DNA of 16,402 bases from an uncultured Candidatus Bathyarchaeia archaeon (GCA_964450845.1 CAYVGZ010000031.1:1-16402), one strand, 5' to 3'. Counted from the stretch's first letter, positions 1-16,402 are shown. A program made the numbers and translations. Notes: a model not told the origin generated them from the letters alone.

Positions 1-976
1 TCCACATGGACCTTGGATTTTTGGCGTGGAAGCGTTCTTTCATTATTTTTGCCCACAGTCTGCGGGCTGCTCTGAATTTGGCTATTTCTTCGAAGAAATC
101 GTTGTGTGATGCGAAAAAGAATGATAAGCGATGGGCAAAATCGTCCACTTTTAATCCTCTTTCTATGGTGGATTCAACGTAAGCTATTCCGTCATAAATG
201 GTGAAGGCTAATTCTTGAAGGGCAGTTGCGCCAGCCTCGCGGATGTGGTAGCCACTTATGCTCACGGGGTTCCACTTTGGCAAATGCTTAGCGCAATATT
301 CAATTATGTCTGTTGTGAGTTTTACTGAAGGCTTTGGCGGGAATATGCATAATTTCTGAGCGAAAAACTCTTTCAGATTGTCGTTTTGCGTTGTTCCCCC
401 AATTTTTTCTCTCGGAACATCTTGCTTGTCTCCTACGGCTACGTACATGGCAAGCAGCATGGGTGCTGGACCATTTATTGTCATAGAAGTTGTAACTTGA
501 TCTAGCGGTATTCCGTCAAACAGGATTTCCATGTCCTTCAATGACGAGATGGCTACTCCGCATATGCCTACTTCCCCCTTTGCCATGGGGTGGTCTGAAT
601 CGTAACCCATTATAGTTGGATAATCAAAAGCCGTGCTTAAACCAGATTCTCCTTCCTTTAGCAGGTATTTGAAACGCTTGTTCGTGTCCGCTGCTGTGCC
701 GAATCCAGCGAACATTCGCATCGTCCATAAGCGACCGCGGTACATGGTTGCGTGTACGCCGCGAAGGAAGGGGTATTCGCCTGGAAAACCCAAATCCCGC
801 ATATAATCTAAGGCTTTAATGTCTTCTGGAGTGTAAACGCCTTTTATTAGCATGCCTGAATGGTTTCGGAATTCACTTTTCCTTTCATGCGATTGCTTCA
901 ACCACTTCGGGAGGGTCGTTTGTTCCCAGCGTTCCCGCTCTCGCCTTATTTCGTTAATCTTCTCTTCATCAAACAT
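1..976 (-). CDS. Adenosylcobalamin-dependent acyl-CoA mutase, large (substrate-binding) subunit; methylmalonyl-CoA mutase family, isobutyryl-CoA-mutase-like residues; truncated at left window edge
   Basis: Not in ORF track; translated by hand from ATG at 976: [19 protein letters not shown]...[29 protein letters not shown]...[17 protein letters not shown]...[16 protein letters not shown]...[13 protein letters not shown]...[32 protein letters not shown], open to position 1. GGAGG SD at 993-989. Confidence 0.95.
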
Positions 977-1102: not shown

Positions 1103-2218
1103 TTATTTGTGTTTTAGTAGGGCAGCGGAGGCTGAAAATCCTAATCCATAACCAACCATCAAAACGATGTCGCCCTTTGAGAGTTTGCCCTCTGAAACTA
1201 TTTTTTCAAGTATGAACGGCAAACTTGCCCCCGCCAAGTTACCATATTCCCTAAGCACTTCGTGCGATTCCCTAATTTTTTCATATGGGATTCTGTGGTG
1301 TTTGGCTATTCGGTTTAGGATTTTTTCGCTGCCCGTGTGAACAACCCACTTCTTTGCCACTTTTATCGTGTTTTCAGCGTTTTTTCCAAGCAGTCTTTCG
1401 AGAGCTAAAGCCGCATATTTTGTTCCCAATTCTGGAATTTCTCTGCCAAGATGCGAATGAAAGCCAAATTTGAAAGGCTCGTTTAAGGCTGAGAGCCTAG
1501 TATAACCAGCCAAAAAATCTTTCTTTCCAAGGTTTGTAGCTTCCACAGTCTTTTCAACCGATAAGCCTATTCCCTCTTTTGCCACGATTGCAGCGGCTAC
1601 TCCGTCTCCGAAAAGGAAAAACTCCATGGTCGCAATCCATTTTCTCAACTCTATCTGCCTTTTTGTCTCTTTTTTTATCTGGTTAATTTGACTGATTTCC
1701 ATAACATCCTTTATTCCCCGCACTTGATTTTGGAACCAGTATGAGCTTACTCCTGAAATGCAAAGCAAAACGTAATCTTCCGGATGCGCCGCAAGGTAGT
1801 TTTCTGCAAGTTCTAAGGCTTTAGGAAATGCGGTGCTGGCGATTCCCTGAGCGTTAACGTGTTTAACGTAAGGGTCAAAACCAAGTTTTCGAACCAAAAG
1901 TTGACTGAGTCCAGGGCACAAAAACGGGTTCACATCATAAGCAGCAATAAAATAGCCTACGTCCCTAACGGATAAGCCTGCCTTTTCAACGGCTTTTTCA
2001 CATGCCTCTACGCAGAGTTCAACAAGGCCAGCTTCGCTTAAGATTGTTTCCAACTTTGAAGATGAAGCCTCATTGTTGATGAGGTAACGTTTTGCAACTC
2101 CCAAGTTGAGTATGTTCTGTTTGACGCCTTCTGGAAGTTTACATGGAAAAACATCAATCAGCTTTTCTGTTGAATACCCATTTTTGGGAAGAGAAGTTGA
2201 TAGCTGTAGTATCTGCAT
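1103..2218 (-). CDS. Type III polyketide synthase / KAS III (thiolase-superfamily) protein with Ser at the catalytic Cys position
   Basis: 371 aa. Motifs FLFGDGVAA, VVHTGS (His294), YGNLAGAS (Asn327; 33-residue His-Asn spacing as in chalcone synthase), GYGLGFS. Nucleophile loop reads QGIAS(128)TA instead of the usual xGxGC. Confidence 0.85.
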   Translation of the reverse strand: MQILQLSTSLPKNGYSTEKLIDVFPCKLPEGVKQNILNLGVAKRYLINNEASSSKLETILSEAGLVELCVEACEKAVEKAGLSVRDVGYFIAAYDVNPFLCPGLSQLLVRKLGFDPYVKHVNAQGIASTAFPKALELAENYLAAHPEDYVLLCISGVSSYWFQNQVRGIKDVMEISQINQIKKETKRQIELRKWIATMEFFLFGDGVAAAIVAKEGIGLSVEKTVEATNLGKKDFLAGYTRLSALNEPFKFGFHSHLGREIPELGTKYAALALERLLGKNAENTIKVAKKWVVHTGSEKILNRIAKHHRIPYEKIRESHEVLREYGNLAGASLPFILEKIVSEGKLSKGDIVLMVGYGLGFSASAALLKHK

Positions 2219-2379
2219 GCAAATAAAATGATAAGCGACATTATAAAAAGATTCTCAGATTCTTTCTAACCAGCCTCTCAAAACCACGTTTCCATTCTTA
2301 ATTTTAGGGCTAATTGCCGCAAAAATCTTATTAATTGTTGAAATCCACTAACTACATCTTTCAAAATTGAGGTGGAAAG
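2219..2379. promoter_or_regulatory. Divergent promoter region between the PKS-like gene and the thiolase operon
   Basis: Minus-strand TTTTATAA at 2248-2241, about 22 nt before ATG 2218 (leaderless geometry). Plus-strand purine-rich stretch then CTTATTAA near 2327-2334. SD GAGGTGG at 2369-2375 before TTG 2380. Confidence 0.55.
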
Positions 2380-3672
2380 TTGAAGAAAGTAGGAATAGTC
2401 GCTGGTAGCATTTCAAGGTTCGACAATCCGAGACATACGTTGCAAGAAGAGATGTGTGCAGAAGCCGTCAAAATGATATTGGACGATGTTCCAGACTTGG
2501 AACTTGGAGATTTCGTGAAGAAAGGATACGCATGCTGCTACTCATACTTCAGCGACATCTTGGAACAGCAACAGTGCATGCACTGGATAATTCACGACTA
2601 TCTAGGCTTAAGCGCTGTACCAGCCTACAGAGTTGAATCTGGCGGCGCAACCCCAATCGACGCAATAGTAAACGCAGCCCTATGGATACGCTCAGGCATG
2701 TTCCCAGTGGTTCTTGTTGTTGGATGGGAAAAAATGGACGAGCTGCCAATTCAGAAGGTTAACGAAGCTATAGCAATTGCTGGCGACACAGACTGGGACT
2801 TCGTTTCAGGTTTTACTTACAACGCTTTCTATGCAACACTTGAAGCTCGTCGAATGCACGTTTACGGCGATACTGAAGAAGACTTGGCTGAAGTTTCAGT
2901 TCTATGTCACAACAATGCACTTGAAAATCCCTACGCGCAGTGGCCAGCTCAACATGGTTTCAGCAAAATAACAGTAGAAGACATCTATAAATCTCGTTTA
3001 ATCTCGTGGCCGTATAGGCTTCTTGAATGTGCAATGACAAGCGAAGGCGCATCGGCTTTGCTCTTGGCAAATGAAGAAATCACGAAGAAACTCACTGACA
3101 ACCCAGTTTGGATAAGCGGAGTAGGTTTCGGCACAGATACGATGAGGCCTGGAGACCGCCCCGATAACCCAGCATGGAAAGGCTTGTACCCCGAAGACGA
3201 AAAAATCTGGCCTAAAAACATTCCAAAGCCAATGTCACCTTACCCTGACCTTGTCAACTTTGGTTCGCTAAGAGTAGCCGCGAGGATGGCTTACAAAGAC
3301 GCTGGAGTGAAGAATCCGCGAAAAGAAATCAGCCTTGTCGAAATTTTCGACCCGTATGCAGGCGTTGTTTTGGCAGGACTTGAAGACTTTGATTTCTGCA
3401 AGAGAGGCGAAGGAAAGAAACTGCTTCGAGAAGGCGTAATTGCGCCTCATGGAGAACTTCCATGTCAACTCAGTGGAGCTTTAACCGCACAGGGACACGC
3501 AGTTGGTTCCACATCAGTCGCTCAAGTGGTTGACGTTTACTGGCAACTGAGCAATCAGATTGGCAAGAAATGGGGCGCACCACGCAGACAATTAAGCAAC
3601 CCGAAAAAAGGCTTCATACACGGACACGGCGGAACAGGATGCCAAGCAGGAGCCGTAGTTTTGGAGGTGTAG
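2380..3672 (+). CDS. Thiolase-family protein (archaeal/SCP2 type), non-canonical active site
   Basis: 430 aa, thiolase fold motifs VVGWEKM, LLECAMTSEGASA, SGALTAQGHAVGST. Nucleophile loop RVESGGATP has no Cys; EIFDPY replaces EVHDCF. Confidence 0.9.
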   Translation: MKKVGIVAGSISRFDNPRHTLQEEMCAEAVKMILDDVPDLELGDFVKKGYACCYSYFSDILEQQQCMHWIIHDYLGLSAVPAYRVESGGATPIDAIVNAALWIRSGMFPVVLVVGWEKMDELPIQKVNEAIAIAGDTDWDFVSGFTYNAFYATLEARRMHVYGDTEEDLAEVSVLCHNNALENPYAQWPAQHGFSKITVEDIYKSRLISWPYRLLECAMTSEGASALLLANEEITKKLTDNPVWISGVGFGTDTMRPGDRPDNPAWKGLYPEDEKIWPKNIPKPMSPYPDLVNFGSLRVAARMAYKDAGVKNPRKEISLVEIFDPYAGVVLAGLEDFDFCKRGEGKKLLREGVIAPHGELPCQLSGALTAQGHAVGSTSVAQVVDVYWQLSNQIGKKWGAPRRQLSNPKKGFIHGHGGTGCQAGAVVLEV

Positions 3673-3675
3673 AAA

Positions 3676-4362
3676 ATGAAGCAACCAGGATCAGAGAAGA
3701 TTCTGAAAGAAAAGAAGATTGACGAGGAATGGTGGAAAGACTGGGAGCGCAAGGGTGGCTGGAGGCCTGAAGGATGGAAAATAGTTGAAATGAATGATGG
3801 ACCAACCTTAAATGAGTTGAAACCTGAGAAATTCTTGATTGTGCACAGGCCTCACGGCAGCATGTTTCATCATAGCTACGGCAAAACCTCTAAGTTCTTC
3901 TCAGGGCTCTTAGAAGGCAAATTGTATGGAACAAAATGTCCAAAATGTGGATTAGTCTATTGTCCGCCACGTGCACACTGCTTTAATCCCAAGTGTAGGC
4001 TTGCAGAAACAAAGTGGATCGAGCTTCCTAAGAAAGGAGAAGTCCACTCATATACGACTATGGCTATTGCATGGCCTTCGATGGCGCATCTGCAGCCATT
4101 AGTCGGTGCAATGGTTAGGATAGATGGAACAAACACTTGTTTACCCATGACGATGAGAGACATTGACCCTGAGAAAGTAAACATTGGCTTAAGAGTAAAC
4201 ATACACATTGATAAACAACCCAAAGGCGACCTCTTAGACGTTTACGCAACGCCTGCTGAAGAACCTAAACCGCCGAAACGGACGCCAGAAGAGCTGAAAC
4301 GCTTCAGGGAAGACATGGAGAAAACAAGAGCTTGGGTCAAAAAAACATTCGGCAAAAAATAG
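3676..4362 (+). CDS. DUF35 Zn-ribbon/OB-fold protein with N- and C-terminal extensions
   Basis: GKLYGTKCPKCGLVYCPPRAHCFNPKC Zn ribbon, then KGEVHSYT OB fold. GGAGGTG SD overlaps the end of the thiolase gene; 3-nt gap. Confidence 0.9.
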   Translation: MKQPGSEKILKEKKIDEEWWKDWERKGGWRPEGWKIVEMNDGPTLNELKPEKFLIVHRPHGSMFHHSYGKTSKFFSGLLEGKLYGTKCPKCGLVYCPPRAHCFNPKCRLAETKWIELPKKGEVHSYTTMAIAWPSMAHLQPLVGAMVRIDGTNTCLPMTMRDIDPEKVNIGLRVNIHIDKQPKGDLLDVYATPAEEPKPPKRTPEELKRFREDMEKTRAWVKKTFGKK

Positions 4363-4420: not shown

Positions 4421-4510
4421 TTTCGTGAAAAATTTCAAAATACTTGAAGAAATTTAAATACTTGTTCAATTACTATTCCATTTTCCACATTAATCGTGGT
4501 AGCAAAGGAG
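4421..4510 (+). promoter_or_regulatory. Promoter and SD for the second thiolase/DUF35 pair
   Basis: TTTCGTGAAA near-palindrome at 4421-4430; GAAGAAA then TTTAAATA (BRE/TATA) at 4446-4460; AAGGAG SD at 4505-4510. Confidence 0.5.
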
Positions 4511-4521
4511 AAATCTCTAAT

Positions 4522-5694
4522 TTGAAGGGTAAACCCCTAGTCTCAATAGTCTCTGCTGGATTATCAAAATTCGGAAAACTGGAAGGCTTTTACGCCAGAG
4601 AAATTTTTGCAGAAGCAGCCAAAGAAACCTTTGACCGCTGTCCAAACCTAGATCCAAAAAAGGACATAACTGCCTTGTTTGTTGGGCACATGGGAGAATC
4701 CTACGAGCATCAAGGACATACAGGTGCAACAGTGGCTGACTGGGCTGGTTTGTTGCATGTTTCCGCCACAAGAACGGAAGCCGCATGTGCTTCTTCTGGA
4801 GCTGCCCTGATGGCTGGAATTTACGCTGTTCTTTCTGGCTTATGCGATGTTGTTATGGTCGGCGGAGTTGAGAAAATGACTCATAGGACAACGCCTGAAG
4901 TTACTGAATATTTGGCTATGGCTTCGGATTATCCTTTTGAACAGTGGCATGGCATAACTTTTCCAGGCTTGTTTGCGTTAATGGCAACTGCGCACATGCA
5001 TGAATACGGCACGACAGAAAACCATCTTGCCATGATCGCCGTCAAAAACCATTATAATGGAAGCCTCAACCCTAAGGCTCACATGCAGAAGGAAATAACC
5101 ATTGAAAATGCCCTGTCTTCACGTGTTATTGCTTGGCCACTTAAGCTTTATGATTGCTCATTAATTACAGACGGCGGAAGTTGCCTAATTTTAACAAAGC
5201 CAGAACTAGCCAAAAAATACACAGACACACCAGTGCACATTATTGGAAGTGGACAGGCAAGCGACACCATAGGCATCTATGAAAGGGAAGGCTTCACGTC
5301 ACTTACAGCTGCCAAACTAGCCGCCAAAAAAGCCTACGAAATGGCTGATGTAAAGCCTGAAGAAATAGATGTTGCAGAAGTCCACGACTGCTTCACCATA
5401 GCTGAAATAATAGCTTACGAGGATTTGGGCTTCGCCAAGCCGGGCGAAGGCAGACGCTTAGTTGAAAGTGGAGATACAAAGCTTGGAGGAAGAATCCCGG
5501 TAAATACGAGCGGCGGATTAAAAGCTAAGGGTCATCCAGTAGGTGCAACAGGAACAGCTCAAGCCTACGAGATTTATCTGCAGCTAACTGAACAAGCAAA
5601 CAGGCGGCAAGTGAAAGACGCTGAAATAGCGTTAACACATAATGTTGGCGGTTCAGGTGCCACAGCCGCTGTTCATATTTATAGGAGGGACTAA
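4522..5694 (+). CDS. Acetyl-CoA acetyltransferase (archaeal/SCP2-type thiolase), canonical active site
   Basis: RTEAAC(89)ASSG, GGVEKM, AEVHDCFT, GGLKAKGHPVGATG, HNVGGSG. Start moved from track TTG 4444 to TTG 4522 because of the SD at 4505-4510 and the TATA box inside the longer ORF; 390 aa. Confidence 0.93.
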   Translation: MKGKPLVSIVSAGLSKFGKLEGFYAREIFAEAAKETFDRCPNLDPKKDITALFVGHMGESYEHQGHTGATVADWAGLLHVSATRTEAACASSGAALMAGIYAVLSGLCDVVMVGGVEKMTHRTTPEVTEYLAMASDYPFEQWHGITFPGLFALMATAHMHEYGTTENHLAMIAVKNHYNGSLNPKAHMQKEITIENALSSRVIAWPLKLYDCSLITDGGSCLILTKPELAKKYTDTPVHIIGSGQASDTIGIYEREGFTSLTAAKLAAKKAYEMADVKPEEIDVAEVHDCFTIAEIIAYEDLGFAKPGEGRRLVESGDTKLGGRIPVNTSGGLKAKGHPVGATGTAQAYEIYLQLTEQANRRQVKDAEIALTHNVGGSGATAAVHIYRRD

Positions 5695-5697
5695 CAC

Positions 5698-6102
5698 ATG
5701 AGCGAGCAAGCGCAACTTTTCACCATAGAACAGTTCTACAAACATATACTTCAAGGAAAACTTATGGGTGGAAAATGCAAGAAATGCGGAAAAATTCACC
5801 TCCCGCCAAGACCATTATGTGACAACTGTTTTTCCAACGAGTTTGAATGGATTGAACTTCCGCAAAAAGGAAAACTGTTAACGTACACGGTTATTCATGT
5901 GGCACCAACACAATTTCAGGGAATGGTGCCATATGCCGTAGGCATAGTGCAACTTGAAAACGGCTTAAAAATTCCAGGCATGATTAGAGGTGTAGCCCCT
6001 GAACAGATAAAGATAGGCATGCAGTTAACGATAGACTTTGGAACCTGCACGGCGACTCAGCCATGGCCTCAATGGCCAAGATACTACTTCAAACCAGCCT
6101 AA
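5698..6102 (+). CDS. DUF35 Zn-ribbon/OB-fold protein (thiolase partner)
   Basis: 134 aa; CKKC-x10-CDNC, KGKLLTYTVIHVAP, PYAVGIVQLENG; GGAGG upstream, 3-nt gap after the thiolase stop. Confidence 0.92.
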   Translation: MSEQAQLFTIEQFYKHILQGKLMGGKCKKCGKIHLPPRPLCDNCFSNEFEWIELPQKGKLLTYTVIHVAPTQFQGMVPYAVGIVQLENGLKIPGMIRGVAPEQIKIGMQLTIDFGTCTATQPWPQWPRYYFKPA

Positions 6103-6134: not shown

Positions 6135-6824
6135 TTATTCTTCTAGTGCTTTGTTGATGTACTCTATTAGGGTTGGCAGGTCTGTTATTGATGTGATAAA
6201 GTAGTTTGCTCCAGAACTGATCAGTTCTTTTGGATGAGAAACTCCAGTCGGCAAGCCCACAGCAATTGCGTTTAATTCTCTAGCGCATTTCATGTCGCTG
6301 ACACCGTCTCCAACGACCATGGTTTCTTCTGGATCAACCCCTAAAGCCTTTAGTGTGGCTTCAAGGTGTTCGGTGTTGGGCTTAACATATCTCACATTGT
6401 TTCTAGGCGTTACAGCATCAAAAAATTCTGCTATCCCAAACCGCTTTAAAATGTAGTTTGTTGATTTTTCACTGTTAATTGTGCACAAGCCTATCTTCAA
6501 AGTCATTTTCTTCAAAGTCTTCAATGTTTCCAAAATTCCTGGAAGCAAGCCTGTGGTTTTCGCAGCTTCCAGCTCGTATTTTTCAGCTATCGCCAAAGCT
6601 TTATCGCGAGTTTCCATCAACGTCTCCTCCGACTTGCCGTTGTTTTTCATGAAAATTTCAGTTTTCTTCAACATTTCGAATATACTTTCGTTTATGGATA
6701 GGATGGAGGCTGGCAACCCTCTTTTTATAAGATAGCTCCTAACATCAGCCCTAACAGCCTTATAGTCAATGTTGAACTTTGCAATAGTTCCATCCAAATC
6801 AAAGACAACAGCCCTAACAACCAT
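6135..6824 (-). CDS. HAD-superfamily hydrolase (phosphoglycolate phosphatase-like)
   Basis: Motif I FDLDGT, motif II CTIN, motif III KP, motif IV VGDGVSD. Confidence 0.9.
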   Translation of the reverse strand: MVVRAVVFDLDGTIAKFNIDYKAVRADVRSYLIKRGLPASILSINESIFEMLKKTEIFMKNNGKSEETLMETRDKALAIAEKYELEAAKTTGLLPGILETLKTLKKMTLKIGLCTINSEKSTNYILKRFGIAEFFDAVTPRNNVRYVKPNTEHLEATLKALGVDPEETMVVGDGVSDMKCARELNAIAVGLPTGVSHPKELISSGANYFITSITDLPTLIEYINKALEE

Positions 6825-8906: not shown

Positions 8907-9968
8907 TCATATTATTTGGACAGTTGAGGCTTTAAAAGTCAAGAAAACTTCAGTGTTTAGGTTGAGTCCCATTTCGCTGAAGGAACGCCTAGTTACCTGA
9001 ACAGTAAAGATTTTTCCAACATCAACTTTAAGCCTGACCACAGAGCCTAAATCCGAAATTTCAACAATTCTGCCTTTGAGAATGTTTCTTGCGCTCGATG
9101 AAAAGCGGTCTTTAGATAATATTATGTCTTCTGGACTGATGAAAACTGAAACTTTGCCAGAGCTTTGGACAGTTGCCTCTATTCGAACGTCGTTTCCAAC
9201 ATCTATCAAGGTTGTGCCGTTCTCAGTGATTTTTGCAGTTCCAGCAAAAGTGTTGTCAACAGCAGCGAAACTAGCCAAATTCTTGGAGAGCTTGCCGAAA
9301 ACCTCCGCTGGCGTGCCAATCTCAGTTATTTTTCCATCGCTCATTAATGCGATGCGCTTGGGCAGGGTCTTAGCTTGGAACATGTTGTGTGTAGCCATGA
9401 CAATGGTGATTTTGTGCTCATGGTTCACTGTAGCGATTACTTCCTCGATGATTGAGGCATTTTTCGGATCCAAGTTTGCAGTTGGTTCATCCAAAAGAAG
9501 AAGTTTAGTCTTAAGAGCTAAAGCTCTGGCTATCGCAACTCTTTGTTGTTCTCCGCCGGAAAGTTTTCTTGCTGGGCGTTTCTCGAAGCCCTCTAACTTC
9601 ACCAGTTTCAGCACCGTTTTTATTTCTTCATTACGTGCATCTTTCGGTGTTTTCCTTACTTTTAACCCATAAGCAATGTTATTGTAGACTGATGTGTCGA
9701 AGAGAGTTGTTTTTTGAAAAACGAGAGTGCTTTGCATCCGCATTTTTTCCGTGTTTTTGAAGCTCACGGTTTCGCCTTGAAACTTGACTTCGCCACCTGT
9801 GGGTTTTTCGATAAATGCTAGGATTTTCAGCATTGTTGTTTTGCCTGAACCGTTTGGGCCTAAGAGTGCTAGTATTTCGCCTTCGTAGATTTGCAAGTTT
9901 ACGTCGTCTAGTACTGTTTTGTTTCCAAATACTTTGGTTATGTTCTTCAACTCAGCGGTTATTGTCAT
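8907..9968 (-). CDS. tupC: Tungstate ABC transporter ATP-binding protein with C-terminal TOBE domains
   Basis: Walker A GPNGSGKT, signature LSGGEQQRV, Walker B LLLLDEP, SSARNILKGRIVEI TOBE motif. ATG 9968 preferred; upstream TTG 9989 is possible. Confidence 0.88.
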   Translation of the reverse strand: MTITAELKNITKVFGNKTVLDDVNLQIYEGEILALLGPNGSGKTTMLKILAFIEKPTGGEVKFQGETVSFKNTEKMRMQSTLVFQKTTLFDTSVYNNIAYGLKVRKTPKDARNEEIKTVLKLVKLEGFEKRPARKLSGGEQQRVAIARALALKTKLLLLDEPTANLDPKNASIIEEVIATVNHEHKITIVMATHNMFQAKTLPKRIALMSDGKITEIGTPAEVFGKLSKNLASFAAVDNTFAGTAKITENGTTLIDVGNDVRIEATVQSSGKVSVFISPEDIILSKDRFSSSARNILKGRIVEISDLGSVVRLKVDVGKIFTVQVTRRSFSEMGLNLNTEVFLTFKASTVQII

Positions 9969-9999
9969 CTTTCTGCCTTCTTTAGCCAAGTTTCATTTT

Positions 10000-10719
10000 T
10001 TATTGTGGTGACCTGCCTAACGTGAGCAGCATTCTCGCTTTTCGGGCTGTAATTATTATCATGTTTATCAAGAAGACTATAACCATCAATATTATTCCGA
10101 GGGCTATGGCTAAATCAAGCTCGCCTCTTTGTGTATAGCGCGAAATTGCTGTTGTCAAGATGTCAGTTAAGCCTGCTATGTTACCACCAACCAAGAGAGC
10201 CACGCCTAACTCAGCTATTGCTCGGTTGAAACTTGCAATGTTCGATAAAAGAACCCCGTTTAACGCTTCTTTCAATACAGCTATGGATGCCTGTGATTCT
10301 GAAGCTCCCAGCGTTTTGGCCAAATTCATTATTTCTGGGTCAACCGCTTCTATGGCAGTGGTTGTTATACTGATTAGTATCGGTGTTACAAGCACAGCCT
10401 CACCCAATATTATGGCACCTGGCGTGTAAAGTAACCCTAGAAATCCTAGTGGTCCACCCTTCGAAAAAACAAGATAAAGAACCAAGCCCAAAACCACTGT
10501 CGGTATACCTATCAAAGAATTGAAGAATCCCTTGATTATGGTTTTGCCTCGAAAGTCTCTAAGACCTATTAACATCGCGATCGGCGTTCCCCAAAGAATT
10601 GCTAAAATGACGGCAATTCCAGAAAAAAAGAGGGAGCGGTAGACGATTCCATAGAGTGTTGGGTCGCCCGAAATAATCAGTTGCAACGCTTTCATTATGC
10701 CACCGAGTATATCAACCAA
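10000..10719 (-). CDS. tupB: Tungstate ABC transporter permease
   Basis: Hydrophobic 239 aa; GIPTVVLGLVLY, EAA-like LAKTLGAS loop, FNRAIAELGVALLVGGNI typical of TupB. Confidence 0.9.
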   Translation of the reverse strand: MVDILGGIMKALQLIISGDPTLYGIVYRSLFFSGIAVILAILWGTPIAMLIGLRDFRGKTIIKGFFNSLIGIPTVVLGLVLYLVFSKGGPLGFLGLLYTPGAIILGEAVLVTPILISITTTAIEAVDPEIMNLAKTLGASESQASIAVLKEALNGVLLSNIASFNRAIAELGVALLVGGNIAGLTDILTTAISRYTQRGELDLAIALGIILMVIVFLINMIIITARKARMLLTLGRSPQ

Positions 10720-10731
10720 TCTTGTTTTCCT

Positions 10732-11742
10732 CTAAGAGTAGAGTTCTGGATAGCCATTTCTGTATTGCGGTGGGCATTCTGAACCATCAAAGAAGGCAGC
10801 ACTTTGTATCCAACTGACTATAAGTTGAGGCGCATTATCTTTTAGTGGTTGTACAGCACCATAGAAAAGACTTTGTCCATACTCTGTTTTGCCGTAGTTT
10901 TCTATTAACTGTTGTGTCTCATCCGAAACCAAGTATTGTATGAATTCCATAGCGTCAACGTAGTTAATTTGCGAATGGAGAGTTTGGTTGGCGGGCACAG
11001 TTTGGTTTACTGCAATGACGCTGTAGATGTTAAGCAAAGATTTCTCTTCTGTTAGAAGCGCAGTCAGAGATATTACGCCTTCCTTCGAAAATTTCAGATA
11101 GGTGCCTATGTCTGAAAGCGTGTAAGCTGATTTCTGGTTAGCTATGTTTAGCGTGTCACCCATGCCTGAGCCTACGCTTGCGTACCATGGCTCTGCGGAT
11201 ATCAATGTATAATTGTAGCCTGCTGCTTTCCAAAGGCTCTGTTCCTTGGAATGTGTGCCAGAGTTGTCTCCTCGAGAAACCCAGACTTTAGTTTGCCCAG
11301 ACTGGTCCGCTAAGCTTTCTCCGTAGGCGACTATGCTATTGAGGGCTTCTGTTGCGTTTTTCCCCAAGATTGCTGCTGGGTCAGCGTCTGGTCCTACGAT
11401 GGTGAAGAAGTTGTAGGCTATTATCTTTCTGTTTACACCGTAGCCTTGTTCGAGGAAGCTTTTTTCCATTGATGGAGAATGGACGAGGATGAGGTCAGCG
11501 TCGCCGTTCTGAGCATGCAGGATAGCTATGCCTGTTCCTGCGGAGATTATGTTAATGTCCACTGTGTGAGTGGCATCGTAGTTTTTCTCTATTTCGTCGA
11601 GTAGACCAGTGTCGTAGAGGCTGGTGGTTGTGGAGATTATGAGTCTTCTCTTGGTGAAGTATTTGAAGTATACTAATGTGCCGGCGATCACTACTATGGT
11701 TGCCAGTGCTGCGATTATAAAGAGTTTTTGCCATGTCTGCAT
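10732..11742 (-). CDS. tupA: Tungstate-binding protein, N-terminal membrane anchor
   Basis: STTTSLYDTGLL (TTTS signature), GTG, SRGDNSGTH. Start reassigned to ATG 11742 (GGTG SD upstream, hydrophobic anchor follows). Confidence 0.9.
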   Translation of the reverse strand: MQTWQKLFIIAALATIVVIAGTLVYFKYFTKRRLIISTTTSLYDTGLLDEIEKNYDATHTVDINIISAGTGIAILHAQNGDADLILVHSPSMEKSFLEQGYGVNRKIIAYNFFTIVGPDADPAAILGKNATEALNSIVAYGESLADQSGQTKVWVSRGDNSGTHSKEQSLWKAAGYNYTLISAEPWYASVGSGMGDTLNIANQKSAYTLSDIGTYLKFSKEGVISLTALLTEEKSLLNIYSVIAVNQTVPANQTLHSQINYVDAMEFIQYLVSDETQQLIENYGKTEYGQSLFYGAVQPLKDNAPQLIVSWIQSAAFFDGSECPPQYRNGYPELYS

Positions 11743-11751
11743 TTCAAACAC

Positions 11752-11790
11752 CGTTATGCACTTCCATTCATATCGACTAAGCCTTATAAG
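11752..11790. promoter_or_regulatory. Candidate ModE operator plus palindromic TATA element between divergent tupA and modE
   Basis: CGTTAT-N12-ATATCG at 11752-11775 matches the CGnTAT-N12-ATAnCG ModE-box geometry; CTTATAAG palindrome at 11783-11790. Confidence 0.65.
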
Positions 11791-11816
11791 CATTGCGTGC
11801 AGATTTTATAGACAGA

Positions 11817-12374
11817 ATGCTCACCCAAAGAAAACACACGAGTTCATGCAAAATCTGGATAGAATATAAGGGAAAGCCCTTAATAGGCAAGGGCGGAGCC
11901 CAAATCCTAGAACAAATAGAAAAGGCAGAGTCCATTTCAAAGGCGGCTGAAAAACTTGGCATGTCTTACCGTTATGTTTGGAGCTACCTACAAAAAATCG
12001 AGAAGAGCATTGAAGAGCCAATCATAGAAACATATAGAGGCGGCAAATCTGGCGGAGGCGGCGCAAAACTGACTAAGCTTGGTAAAAGTTTGTTAGAGGA
12101 GTATAGGCATGTTGAAGGTTATCTGGGTGAGGTTCTTTCTGATGCAGAATATTGGGAGGCTCTTGGTTTGAAAATTAGTGCAAGAAATCGTTTAAAAGGG
12201 GAAGTATTAACTGTTGAGAAAGAAGGTTTAACCGCAAAAGTCAAGGTTAAAATAACCGTGCCAACCGTTGTGACAGCATTGATTTCAAGAGAAGCAGCTG
12301 AAGACCTAAACATAAAAGTTGGAGATGAAGTGGAAACTGTAATAAAGGCAACAGAAGTCATGATAGCAAAATAG
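11817..12374 (+). CDS. modE: ModE-family molybdate/tungstate-responsive transcriptional regulator (wHTH + one TOBE domain)
   Basis: IGKGGAQILEQIEKAESISKAAEKLGMSYRYVW, GGKSGGGAKLT, ISARNRLKGEV. ATG 11817 preferred over the track start at 11793. Confidence 0.9.
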   Translation: MLTQRKHTSSCKIWIEYKGKPLIGKGGAQILEQIEKAESISKAAEKLGMSYRYVWSYLQKIEKSIEEPIIETYRGGKSGGGGAKLTKLGKSLLEEYRHVEGYLGEVLSDAEYWEALGLKISARNRLKGEVLTVEKEGLTAKVKVKITVPTVVTALISREAAEDLNIKVGDEVETVIKATEVMIAK

Positions 12375-12600: not shown

Positions 12601-15600
12601 ATGAAAGAAAAAATCACCACTTGTATGATATTAGCGATGCTTTTGATAACAATAGTTCCGACGATATACGTACAGGGAATGGATGAAAATCAGTGCATTT
12701 TTACTGAAAATTCACAATTAATGCCTCAGCAGAAGATTAGTTCACAACTTCTGGAGAAATTAGAAGAAGCTGGAATCAACGGTGATCCAAATGAACTTGT
12801 AAGAATCCTAATACGACATGATCTGCTTTCAGAGGTCAAGATGCCTGAGGGAGTTGAAGTTCTAAAACGCTTCAATCTCGTTCCAATAATATCTGCTATA
12901 CTGCCTATTTCGATGGTCGAAGAAATAAGCAGGATGCCAGGCGTTGAATATGTCTACCTTGACTCGCAAATGCACGTTACAAGCGATGAATATCCAACGC
13001 TTCCTTATCCTGACTACTCAGCGGCAAAGGATTGGAGAAACGCTCAAGTTGTTGACGAAGAATTTCCAGCTGACCCGTATTTTGGACAATACCCCACCTA
13101 CCTAAATGAAACCACAGAACTCATTGGCGCAAGAAAGCTTTGGGCAGAGGGGATAACAGGCAAAAATGTCACCATATCGATAATAGACACAGGAATCAAC
13201 AAGTATCATCCAGACCTAGATGACATGGATGATGACCCAACAACACATGACCCTAAAGTGCTTGCTGAAGCCTCCTTCGTCCCATATGAACCTTCAGACG
13301 ATCTCCACGGGCATGGCACCCACGTCGCTAGCACGGCAGCAGGCACAGGCGCTACTGGAGCAATGGGCTTTTATGGAACTTTTCCATACTATGGGATTCA
13401 TAACGCAACTATTTTACCTGGAACCGAAAGAGGGGTTGCACCAGGCGCATATCTCTACAATGCCAAAGCTTTTGACAGCGGAGGTTCAGGATATGACAGC
13501 TGGATTATAGGAGCTATCGAATGGTCAGTGGCGCAGGGTGCAGACGTAATCAGCGGAAGCTTCGGCGGATGGCCAGAAACCTCGCCAGACCAAGACCCAG
13601 TAGTTTTAGCCTTGAAGGAAGCTATCAAACACGGAGTAGTTGTGGTTATTGCTGCAGGAAACGAAGGATGGGGCTACTTTTCAACAGGAACTCCCGGCTT
13701 CGCACCAGACGTCATAACGGTTGGCGCAACAACTGAAACTGATCAATTAGCCTTCTTTAGTAGCCGTGGGCCTGAACAGTTTGAATTGCATGCAAAGCCT
13801 GACATAGTTGCACCTGGAACTTGTGTGGTTGCAGCTTTAAGTTTCTTTAGAGAATTTGAGGAGTACGTTGGGCTTCAGGTTTTCTATTGGGAGATTAGCG
13901 GGACAAGTATGGCGACACCCCACGTTTCTGGAGCAGTAGCGTTACTATTGCAGGCTTTTCCAGGCGCAACGCCTTACTCTGTTAAAGCAGCATTAATGCA
14001 AGGCGCAGAAGATTTAGGATTAGATTCTATGGCTCAAGGTGCTGGCAGATTAGACGTGAAAAAAGCCTACGACATCATGAATGAGGCACCTAAAGCTCAG
14101 TGGGCTGCACCTTTACCAACTGACACCATTGTTCCGAATCTGCCAGACTTTTCGACTATGCTTAACCTAACAGGTAAGACTATCCTAATTGATACTTCAT
14201 ATTGGGATCATGTAAATGAATTCATGCAGTTCTTCAATGTGCTGTATAGCTATGGAGCTTACCTCTATGGAATGACAGGTCCATACACTAATGATACGCT
14301 CGTGGACCCGGGAACCGGCGAACCCTACTTCGACGTTTTCATAATTCCAAAACTGACTTTTGTCGACACTATATACATGCCGCCTAGTGTACTAGATAAC
14401 TACATTAAGCACAATGGAACAGTGCTTTTCATCGGAGATGAACCATTTTATCCTGATCTACCTAAAGACTACAATGATTGGACCGAAATCTGGGGTATCA
14501 CTTGGAACAACACCGCAGTAGGCGGCTACTCGTCTCATATGATTTCGCATAACATAACAAACGACGTAACAGAGCTTTACTTCGGCAGTCCAATAACTAG
14601 TTTGATTGTAAACGCAAGCATGCAAGCAGAAACTGTAGTTTGGGACCCAATATTCCCAGCAATCGCCTTTTGGGAGACTCCTGCGCCAGCTACAGGAAAA
14701 GTTGTTGTAATCTCCGACGACGGGGTTCTCAACAACTTATACTTGTACGCAGCGGACAATCTGAAGCTTGGTTTAAACATTATTAAATGGTTTACTGGAA
14801 CAAAAGAGATTGAGTGTTACGTCAGCGAAGAGGTTGTTGGAGTCCCAACATGGATCGAATCGGGTCACCCATATCCACCATATGCATATGAGGTGTATCC
14901 AATCTATCAATCAGGAGCATCTTGGATTAGCGTACACTTTACTGCAATCGAGGTGGAGGGGGGCTGGGACGCTGTCTCGGTCTACGATGGGGGCTGGAAC
15001 CTAATAACGTACTATACTGGGTACTACTATGATGTTTGGACGCCACCTGTGCCTGGCGACACAGTCTACATATTGCTGACCAGCGATGGATCAATTGAGT
15101 ATTGGGGATTCGTCGCCGACTACTACGAATATAACTATAGAATAGTAACGCCCCTTCCACCAGCCTACCACGAAATCGGCGTAGGTGGCACTTGGCCACA
15201 ATATGTAATCGCGAACGCAACAGCCACAGTATCAGTCAACGTCACCAACTTTGGAACGTACACGGAAGATGTTGGACTCTACATGAACGGCATAAACGTA
15301 GAAACTGTAAATAACTTGGCGCCTGGCACGTCGACAATAGTCGAGCTAAGTACACCGCAACTTAATGCTACATTGATATGCGACGAGTCTGGCGTTAACA
15401 TGACGTTGATAAGCATATGGGCTAACATTACAGACCTAGAAATTGACTACACGAACAACGGCTTCGTTGCTGAAATCGCAGCAGTGCCAAAAGGAGAAAG
15501 AAAAGGCGACAATCCTCTCTTGTCTGTGATAACTCCGATGAAAATTGATTCTACAAGTGCTCCATTAATCACGATGTATCCTGAAGACTTCACACTACAT

Positions 15601-16402
15601 AACATGACAGCGTTTGTAGGCGGCGGAGAGCTTGTCGACGCTGAATTCCAGATCACAGGCAACGTTTCGCAAATTGCCGACTTCATAGATGTGACAGAGT
15701 TCGCATATCATGTGGATCTCGGAGGACTTCTAGACCCATCGCCAGCTTACTTCAAACCGAACATGACAGCAATTATAGGCGATACTCTCAGCTTGGGCGA
15801 TGTTTCAGCGCCTGCCATGCTTTTTGCGGAATTACAAGTATATATAGATGAAGACACGCCGACAGGAACATATACTGGCCAAGTAAGATTGATGAACGGA
15901 ACAACTACGATAACTTCCGCAAGCTTAAGCTTCGAAGTGAAAAATCCGAAGTACAAGGTTCTATGGGAAGATTATTACAATGGCTATGAGTATTATTGGT
16001 ACGACTGTGAACGTCTTTGGGGAGGAGCAGTATGGGGCTATGGCGTGTTTGAATGGTGGAAACTAGTATCTCAGGCGGGATTCGACGTCGATTCATTGCA
16101 TCAGCAAGTATACTTGAAACAACACATCGGCTATTTGGGAACAAGTTCAGTAGACCCGCTGGGAATAATTGCTTATGGTGGTTACGATGCGCTTTACATG
16201 CACGATGTGGACTTCAGTTTCAACCCAGACCAAATATCAGTCTTCAGACAACTGTACGAAACTGGAAAGATGGACTTTGTGGTGCTATTTGATGGAGGAA
16301 GCGAAGCATTGTCTTCATTCACCAGCTACTACGGTATCAGCGCGTCATGGTCTTGGGTCTATGACTTGGTAATCACTGGACTTGACAAAACGCATCCTAT
16401 CT
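12601..16402 (+). CDS. Large secreted multidomain subtilisin-like (S8) serine protease, truncated at right window edge
   Basis: Not in ORF track; frame read codon by codon with no stop from 12601 to 16402 (1267 codons). Signal peptide MKEKITTCMILAMLLITIVPTIYVQG, I9-like propeptide, catalytic IID(196)TG, HGH(238)GTHVA, AAGN oxyanion Asn, SGTS(436)MATPHV. Confidence 0.96.
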   Translation, partial: MKEKITTCMILAMLLITIVPTIYVQGMDENQCIFTENSQLMPQQKISSQLLEKLEEAGINGDPNELVRILIRHDLLSEVKMPEGVEVLKRFNLVPIISAILPISMVEEISRMPGVEYVYLDSQMHVTSDEYPTLPYPDYSAAKDWRNAQVVDEEFPADPYFGQYPTYLNETTELIGARKLWAEGITGKNVTISIIDTGINKYHPDLDDMDDDPTTHDPKVLAEASFVPYEPSDDLHGHGTHVASTAAGTGATGAMGFYGTFPYYGIHNATILPGTERGVAPGAYLYNAKAFDSGGSGYDSWIIGAIEWSVAQGADVISGSFGGWPETSPDQDPVVLALKEAIKHGVVVVIAAGNEGWGYFSTGTPGFAPDVITVGATTETDQLAFFSSRGPEQFELHAKPDIVAPGTCVVAALSFFREFEEYVGLQVFYWEISGTSMATPHVSGAVALLLQAFPGATPYSVKAALMQGAEDLGLDSMAQGAGRLDVKKAYDIMNEAPKAQWAAPLPTDTIVPNLPDFSTMLNLTGKTILIDTSYWDHVNEFMQFFNVLYSYGAYLYGMTGPYTNDTLVDPGTGEPYFDVFIIPKLTFVDTIYMPPSVLDNYIKHNGTVLFIGDEPFYPDLPKDYNDWTEIWGITWNNTAVGGYSSHMISHNITNDVTELYFGSPITSLIVNASMQAETVVWDPIFPAIAFWETPAPATGKVVVISDDGVLNNLYLYAADNLKLGLNIIKWFTGTKEIECYVSEEVVGVPTWIESGHPYPPYAYEVYPIYQSGASWISVHFTAIEVEGGWDAVSVYDGGWNLITYYTGYYYDVWTPPVPGDTVYILLTSDGSIEYWGFVADYYEYNYRIVTPLPPAYHEIGVGGTWPQYVIANATATVSVNVTNFGTYTEDVGLYMNGINVETVNNLAPGTSTIVELSTPQLNATLICDESGVNMTLISIWANITDLEIDYTNNGFVAEIAAVPKGERKGDNPLLSVITPMKIDSTSAPLITMYPEDFTLHNMTAFVGGGELVDAEFQITGNVSQIADFIDVTEFAYHVDLGGLLDPSPAYFKPNMTAIIGDTLSLGDVSAPAMLFAELQVYIDEDTPTGTYTGQVRLMNGTTTITSASLSFEVKNPKYKVLWEDYYNGYEYYWYDCERLWGGAVWGYGVFEWWKLVSQAGFDVDSLHQQVYLKQHIGYLGTSSVDPLGIIAYGGYDALYMHDVDFSFNPDQISVFRQLYETGKMDFVVLFDGGSEALSSFTSYYGISASWSWVYDLVITGLDKTHPI

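Follow-up and report, generated by a model that had tools for sequence, protein, structure and literature searches.

A natural Ser-His-Asn variant of a type III polyketide synthase-like protein is conserved in a clade of Bathyarchaeia

The catalytic cysteine is treated as the defining residue of the thiolase superfamily. In this study, we describe P0001, a protein with a serine at that position, encoded in a 16,402-nucleotide stretch of DNA (hereafter the window) from an uncultured Candidatus Bathyarchaeia archaeon (GCA_964450845.1, CAYVGZ010000031.1:1-16402). Bathyarchaeia are an abundant, uncultured group of sediments. The closest fold to that of P0001 is found in the bacterial type III polyketide synthases (PKSs) CylI (8ysp), Pks11 (4jao), THNS (1u0m) and Pks18 (1ted). 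A serine nucleophile also occurs naturally in DpsC, as an earlier note on this DNA correctly pointed out. DpsC has the fold of β-ketoacyl-ACP synthase III (KAS III; ACP, acyl carrier protein) and a Ser118-His297-Asp302 triad, self-acylates on this serine and primes with short acyl-CoAs (PMC12664062). It works with an ACP in actinomycete type II PKS systems. Proteins of the KAS III/HMG-CoA synthase (HMGS) fold also form complexes with an SCP2-type thiolase and a DUF35 protein, as in archaeal HMGS/ACAT/DUF35, PhlACB and MucABC (PMC12960953). HMGS carries a Glu-Cys-His-Asn tetrad, which PhlA and MucA have lost entirely (PMC12960953). Inactive subunits of this kind are defined by that loss together with a move of catalysis to the thiolase subunit.

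The reading frame of P0001 is intact, with an ATG start and a single stop, in agreement with the earlier note. The gene and the codons of its catalytic residues lie at the following positions of the window.

1103..2218, minus strand: P0001, type III PKS/KAS III-like protein, Ser-His-Asn variant, 371 aa (Pfam, AlphaFold2 model and structure matches)
1835..1837 (read 1837-1835), minus strand: Ser128, codon AGC, nucleophile position (alignment to solved type III PKSs)
1610..1612, minus strand: Phe203, codon TTC, in the FGDG motif, equivalent to gatekeeper Phe215 of chalcone synthase (alignment, codon checked)
1337..1339, minus strand: His294, codon CAC, in the motif HTGS (invariant in relatives, codon checked)
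1238..1240, minus strand: Asn327, codon AAC, in the motif YGNLAGA (invariant in relatives, codon checked)

When P0001 was aligned to solved structures with phmmer, Ser128 fell on the catalytic Cys of THNS (1u0m), CylI (8ysp) and Pks18 (1ted and 1tee); the alignment to chalcone synthase-type structures begins at FGDG. His294 and Asn327 are unchanged in all of the 149 aligned relatives, Phe is present at position 203 in 147 of them, and Asp205 is conserved alongside these residues. The codons and the alignments confirm the observation, first made from the window, that a serine encoded by AGC occupies the nucleophile position while His294 and Asn327 are intact.

In the Pfam scan, P0001 matched ACP_syn_III_C above the cut-off (57.1 bits) and Chal_sti_synt_C (44.6 bits against a cut-off of 27), gave 18.5 bits against a cut-off of 27 for FAE1_CUT1_RppA, and had no match to Chal_sti_synt_N, the N-terminal domain of chalcone synthases. 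All of the curated NCBIfam models for FabH, DpgA and HMGS scored far below their cut-offs: 74.5 against 249 bits for PRK09352 and 71.3 against 292 bits for TIGR00747 (both FabH), and 16.7 against 244 bits for the HMG-CoA synthase model NF003274. By the curated models, then, P0001 is not classed as a FabH. An AlphaFold2 model built on the 149 relatives reached a pLDDT of 95.1. In this model, Ser128 is located at the N-terminus of helix 127-144, right behind strand 119-124, a predicted position that is the nucleophile elbow of the thiolase fold. The best Foldseek matches of the model were type III PKSs (TM 0.75-0.80). The top 10 rows of VIA-align were likewise all type III PKSs, with Z scores of 40.0-42.6 and an rmsd of 2.0-2.5 A over 330-348 residues; KAS III (Z about 36-37), HMG-CoA synthase (35.5) and PhlA (34.0) ranked lower, with PhlA/MucA at 32-34 and CerJ/ChlB3 at 30-32. 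P0001 folds like a type III PKS, yet it lacks the Cys-His-Asn triad.

P0001 and the type III PKSs share the gatekeeper Phe, the His and the Asn, with sequence matches down to an E value of 2e-15, and both are stand-alone proteins. No PP-binding/ACP domain (PF00550) was detected in the 93%-complete genome that contains the window, by a search that was positive in 11 control genomes, and this fits CoA substrates. However, identity to the type III PKSs is only about 20%, the catalytic Cys is replaced by Ser, the His motif reads HTGS instead of HPGG, and the loop reads GYG(L/W)GFS instead of GFGPG. The gene lies in an acyl-CoA mutase/thiolase locus and not in a secondary-metabolite cluster. KAS III (FabH) shares the ACP_syn_III_C match and the fold but stands below the type III PKSs in structural rank, and it uses malonyl-ACP, for which the genome has no detected ACP domain. 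Although DpsC shares the serine, its third residue is Asp302, while P0001 has Asn327, and DpsC was absent among the matches listed for P0001 by phmmer against structures, Foldseek and VIA-align. P0001 is not DpsC-like by its triad and most likely not by descent. The two serines appear to have independent origins, because that of P0001 arose inside a Cys-bearing archaeal family. With PhlA/MucA and archaeal HMGS, the P0001 locus has in common that a gene for a KAS III/HMGS-fold protein is accompanied by genes for an SCP2-type thiolase and DUF35, but P0001 keeps His and Asn together with Ser, and its gene is divergent from the thiolase genes and does not appear to be their obligate companion. The database names of its relatives ('naringenin-chalcone synthase', 'alkylresorcinol/alkylpyrone synthase' and '3-oxoacyl-ACP synthase III') are automatic labels. 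In the literature, our searches turned up neither this archaeal family nor a type III PKS relative with a natural Ser-His-Asn triad. The clade of P0001 would represent a natural Ser-His-Asn variant of type III PKS-like chemistry.

The serine is a character of this clade and not of the window alone. A word-based search scored 755 relatives, whose database names indicate Bathyarchaeota; the 120 closest clusters are at least 70% identical to P0001. Of these clusters, 74 have Ser at position 128 and 46 have Cys, and His294 and Asn327 are invariant. All matches above about 76% identity have Ser (the closest homologs are 76-91% identical), and members at 25-66% identity all have Cys. These results answer the question, raised in the earlier note, of whether the serine is conserved in homologs, and they contradict the alternative that close homologs all have Cys, which appears only farther out; a real Ser-His-Asn variant is thus supported. 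The motif at the nucleophile is GIASTAFP in the Ser form and GMACAAFS in the Cys form. The family is small and distinct, since an exhaustive HMMER search gave just 23 representatives at E values up to 1e-30. It was found in 18 of the 301 species genomes of the class.

Since all of the more distant family members have Cys, this residue is the ancestral one. Among 80 independently assembled metagenome loci, the 54 Ser-type genes use AGC (46) or AGT (8) and never TCN, and the Cys-type genes use TGC (20) or TGT (6). The nine Ser genes in species genomes all use AGC, while the Cys genes there use both TGC and TGT. This restriction to AGY points to a single first-base step from TGY to AGY, after which the third base drifted. 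When 82 proteins were placed in a maximum-likelihood tree, those with Ser lay on one side of a single branch, with one change, and the clade that encloses them (99 SH-aLRT) has only two Cys proteins as further members. When the active-site columns were removed, a free quick search needed two changes. However, the tree in which the Ser proteins were held together was better by 18 log-likelihood units (p-AU 0.81), so that multiple origins are not indicated. The best reading of these sequences is a single Cys-to-Ser change in the ancestor of a now diverse clade of Bathyarchaeia.

The Ser and Cys forms are under equally strong purifying selection. The median pairwise synonymous divergence (dS) and the nonsynonymous to synonymous ratio (dN/dS) are 1.72 and 0.106 in the Ser group, and 1.18 and 0.117 in the Cys group. 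The earlier note had looked to TCN codons as a sign of selection on the serine, and none occurs in the 63 Ser-type genes. Their absence does not weaken the case for selection, because AGC and AGT vary, dS is about 1.7 and dN/dS is 0.106. All 74 members of the Ser group keep Ser, with no reversion to Cys and no Ala, Gly, Thr or Asn, all likewise within one step. Since the serine is retained this strictly, its hydroxyl appears to be needed; the pattern argues for a role of the Ser128 hydroxyl. The six positions that best split the two groups are M126I, A129T, S132P, N158S, Y163Q and S209A. In the sequence, they lie beside the nucleophile, in loop 158-163 (a pocket-lining loop in chalcone synthases) and just past FGDG. 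These co-varying changes look like a coordinated remodelling around the nucleophile and the pocket loop.

The genome of the window (1.64 Mb, a 93%-complete draft of 120 contigs) has two family copies, one with Ser and one with Cys. The Cys paralog, P0121 (G000:C100:159-1271), is 75% identical to P0001 and adjoins genes for an acyl-CoA dehydrogenase and the electron transfer flavoprotein (ETF) alpha subunit; the separate Cys subgroup to which it belongs adjoins acyl-CoA dehydrogenase/ETF genes. The Cys-type members P0121 and P0068 are 62-76% identical to P0001, equal in length and alike in His, Asn and Phe, but they have Cys together with M126, A129, S132, N158, Y163 and S209 where the Ser form differs. 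Five species genomes, namely G286 (98% complete, 2 contigs), G184, G294, G072 and G298, have no family copy other than the Ser form, so the Ser enzyme has no need of a Cys partner. An obligate heterodimer of the Ser and Cys paralogs is ruled out by these Ser-only genomes and by G300, in which the Ser form is intact and the Cys paralog is split. The split copy (L033:8689-9791, corresponding to G300:C11:27688-28793) consists of two overlapping frames, residues 1-200 and 182-369, adjoins acyl-CoA dehydrogenase/ETF genes, and may reflect either a frameshift in a pseudogene or a fault of assembly.

Among the 149 aligned proteins, the sole other Ser outside the Ser group of the family belongs to an unrelated bacterial protein, P0260. 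This Pks11-like homolog of 351 aa has the HPGG motif and a natural Ser at the nucleophile (GETGSHAGL), and by its sequence it is a second, independent natural Ser variant. Its best match in the PDB, 4jat, also has Ser at the aligned position (LGSVAG) and looks like a Cys-to-Ser mutant of the Pks11 nucleophile. Another predicted protein, P0133, is 4818 residues long and matches P0001 at 25% identity in 17 separate stretches. Either the gene is mis-called or P0133 is a giant protein in which KAS III-like repeats occur many times.

The Ser gene lies between a B12-dependent mutase gene and a divergent thiolase/DUF35 cluster, with the following features.

2..976, minus strand: B12-dependent acyl-CoA mutase large subunit, N-terminal part, cut by the contig end (Pfam MM_CoA_mutase 6e-127); Phe at the position of Tyr89 of methylmalonyl-CoA mutase (MCM), Ala at that of HcmA Asp117 and Gln at that of MCM Arg207
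2219..2379, no strand: divergent intergenic region of 161 bp between the Ser gene and the thiolase/DUF35 cluster (gene positions)
2380..3672, plus strand: thl1, SCP2-type thiolase-fold protein without the nucleophile Cys (ESGGATP) (Pfam Thiolase_C_1/Thiolase_N)
3676..4362, plus strand: DUF35 protein (zinc ribbon and OB fold), partner of thl1 (Pfam zf-ChsH2, OB_ChsH2_C; syntenic in related loci)
4444..5694, plus strand: thl2, canonical SCP2-type thiolase with Cys (TEAACASS) (NCBIfam PRK06064, 501.9 bits, above the cut-off)
5698..6102, plus strand: second DUF35 protein, partner of thl2 (Pfam OB_ChsH2_C 5e-19, zf-ChsH2 4e-12)
6135..6824, minus strand: HAD-family hydrolase, end of the syntenic cluster (Pfam HAD_2; same place in L022, L024, L026 and many metagenome loci)

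The mutase gene is located downstream of the Ser gene and co-directional with it in 35 of the 42 informative Ser-type loci. Its best solved relative is HcmA (4r3u), a 2-hydroxyisobutyryl-CoA mutase (HCM). The combination of Phe, Ala and Gln at the diagnostic positions is what we take to be the signature of isobutyryl-CoA mutase (ICM), and it points to an ICM-type enzyme. In G286, the Ser gene is followed in a co-directional row by the mutase large subunit, the B12-binding small subunit, MeaB and a corrinoid adenosyltransferase. The mutases at L022:5084-8706 and L120:1888-5500 are of the same Phe/Ala/Gln type and are likewise followed by the small subunit, MeaB and the adenosyltransferase. P0068, the closest Cys relative of the Ser clade, has the same mutase operon, and G008 also has a Cys form at the mutase locus; it is therefore likely that the Cys-to-Ser swap happened in place. 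The name MM_CoA_mutase could suggest that P0001 is a methylmalonyl-CoA decarboxylase, and this candidate is weakened by the presence of Phe, Ala and Gln at the carboxylate- and hydroxyl-binding positions of MCM and HCM.

Our leading reading, to which we give an even chance, is that P0001 functions as a CoA-dependent homolog of type III PKS and KAS III, in which a single Cys-to-Ser change and changes in its surroundings were kept by selection, and which would use a Ser oxyester, probably of a C4 acyl group. In this mechanism, the acyl group of a short acyl-CoA would be transferred onto Ser128 as an oxyester, with His294 activating the serine as a base, comparable to Ser118 of DpsC. His294, Asn327 and Phe203 would then decarboxylate malonyl-CoA for a Claisen condensation, or might help to pass the acyl group on to a different acceptor. 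Butyryl- or isobutyryl-CoA would be the probable acyl donor, because the Ser gene usually heads an ICM-type mutase operon with MeaB and the adenosyltransferase. A supply of malonyl-CoA is plausible, since contig 27 of the genome encodes biotin carboxylase and carboxyltransferase domains. A more specific version, which we put forward tentatively, is that members of the Ser clade are natural condensing enzymes of the type III PKS kind that work through an oxyester: butyryl- or isobutyryl-CoA from the presumably co-transcribed ICM-type mutase would acylate Ser128 before the condensation with malonyl-CoA.

Several points weigh against the oxyester reading. For Claisen condensation, an oxyester is less electrophilic than a thioester. 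The substrate is assigned from gene order, and 5 of the 54 Ser-type loci lie in unrelated contexts. DpsC is an imperfect precedent, because its serine pairs with Asp and not with Asn. The conserved serine might just as well donate a hydrogen bond in a decarboxylase. In addition, an engineered Cys-to-Ser change abolishes the activity of tomato chalcone synthase (PMC7608815) and leaves only residual activity in the Physcomitrella enzyme (PMC3431822), which indicates that a simple swap is normally crippling in this scaffold.

The main rival is that P0001 is only a decarboxylase. It would form no acyl-enzyme, Phe203, His294 and Asn327 would decarboxylate malonyl-CoA or a related carboxy-acyl-CoA, and Ser128 would be just a hydrogen-bond donor. 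The residues for decarboxylation do not vary, the genome encodes an acyl-CoA carboxylase, and Cys mutants of chalcone synthase as well as the C112S mutant of E. coli FabH keep malonyl decarboxylation. In a sister family (f5; L028 and L029), moreover, a Cys-type gene lies beside a true MCM with Tyr and Arg. However, the mutase of the Ser-type genes has Phe and Gln in place of this carboxylate-binding pair, so the neighbourhood gives no pointer to a carboxylated substrate. Mere loss of the nucleophile would also tolerate Ala, Gly or Thr, while only Ser takes the place of Cys in more than 120 sequences, and the known dedicated decarboxylating ketosynthase variants use Gln. The changes in the pocket region suggest that the acyl group is bound differently, a change that would be superfluous in a decarboxylase. 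We therefore consider a pure decarboxylase rather doubtful, though a serious competitor. Acyl transfer or hydrolysis without formation of a C-C bond, in which a Ser-His O-acyl enzyme would be resolved by water (as in a thioesterase) or by an O- or N-nucleophile, as in the KAS III-like CerJ and ChlB3, draws on the same conservation evidence as the oxyester reading. Ser-His chemistry is typical of acyltransferases and hydrolases, CerJ and ChlB3 have this fold, and DpsC transfers acyl groups too (PMC12664062). Nevertheless, Asn327 and Phe203, which are needed mainly for decarboxylation of the extender, are invariant in the Ser clade, CerJ and ChlB3 match the model well below the type III PKSs, and a thioesterase would presumably waste thioester energy in a fermentative anaerobe. 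Such an activity seems unlikely.

The earlier note also suggested a structural subunit analogous to PhlA. P0001 would then be a non-catalytic scaffold of a thiolase/DUF35 complex, as PhlA or MucA are, and indeed the Ser gene faces two thiolase and DUF35 pairs in 45 of the 51 informative loci, and PhlA and MucA share the fold. Unlike these proteins, which lost their tetrad, P0001 belongs to a group in which His, Asn and the gatekeeper Phe are kept and dN/dS is on a par with that of the Cys forms. Furthermore, thl1 orthologs of 80-92% identity occur in G118 (97% complete), G318 and G323, for which our searches gave no family member, thl1 and a Cys-type gene lie on separate contigs in G223, and a genuine HMG-CoA synthase is encoded elsewhere in the genome of the window (G000:C108:348-1346, 376 bits). 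We consider a scaffold role highly improbable. An obligate complex with thl1 and DUF35 was considered as well and is unsupported, given the thl1 orthologs in genomes where no family member was found. Finally, AGC is one base from TGC and the genome is a draft, which raised the concern that the serine is an error of sequencing or assembly, a private mutation or the mark of a gene decaying into a pseudogene, as the earlier note had recognized for error and lineage-private mutation. This reading is excluded: the serine is present in the 54 independent metagenome contigs and in nine species genomes, as AGC and as AGT, the frame is intact with a dN/dS of about 0.11, and the AlphaFold2 model is of high confidence.

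Three findings extend the earlier note: the genome also has a Cys paralog, the Ser clade has, as best read, a single origin, and its genes are linked to the operon of an ICM-type B12 mutase. A natural clade appears to have made the Cys-to-Ser swap once, together with changes that flank the active site, and to have kept it for long under selection. P0001 and P0121 are a matched Ser/Cys pair in one genome and offer a built-in control for studies of Ser-His-Asn chemistry and of the second-shell changes. The locus also points to an acyl-CoA pathway in Bathyarchaeia that may join a type III PKS-like enzyme to an ICM-type mutase and to thiolase/DUF35 proteins. If condensation does proceed via an oxyester, no condensing enzyme of the type III PKS lineage would have been shown before to act through a serine ester. 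Such a route would allow ACP-independent extension of short, possibly branched acyl-CoAs, with β-keto products passing to the thiolase/DUF35 neighbours.

The upstream thl1-DUF35-thl2-DUF35-HAD cluster keeps the ESGGATP motif of thl1 in at least 45 loci, and thl1 (91-98% identical) is more conserved than the adjoining Ser gene. The thiolase Cys of thl1 is missing in both Ser-type and Cys-type loci, and its loss is thus likely to be older than the Ser swap. The sequence suggests that thl1 may be an Ltp2/Sal-like aldolase that acts with its DUF35 partner. One Ser-type gene (L070:3523-4668) adjoins an IS240-family DDE transposase and a type II restriction-modification methylase, which suggests that the Ser-type gene is occasionally relocated. 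Farther along, the window encodes a tungstate/molybdate-type ABC transporter (8907-12374; WtpC-like ATPase, TupB-like permease and PBP-like binding protein) with a divergent HTH and TOBE (ModE-like) regulator, and a subtilase of more than 1267 aa (12601-16401) that runs off the contig end.

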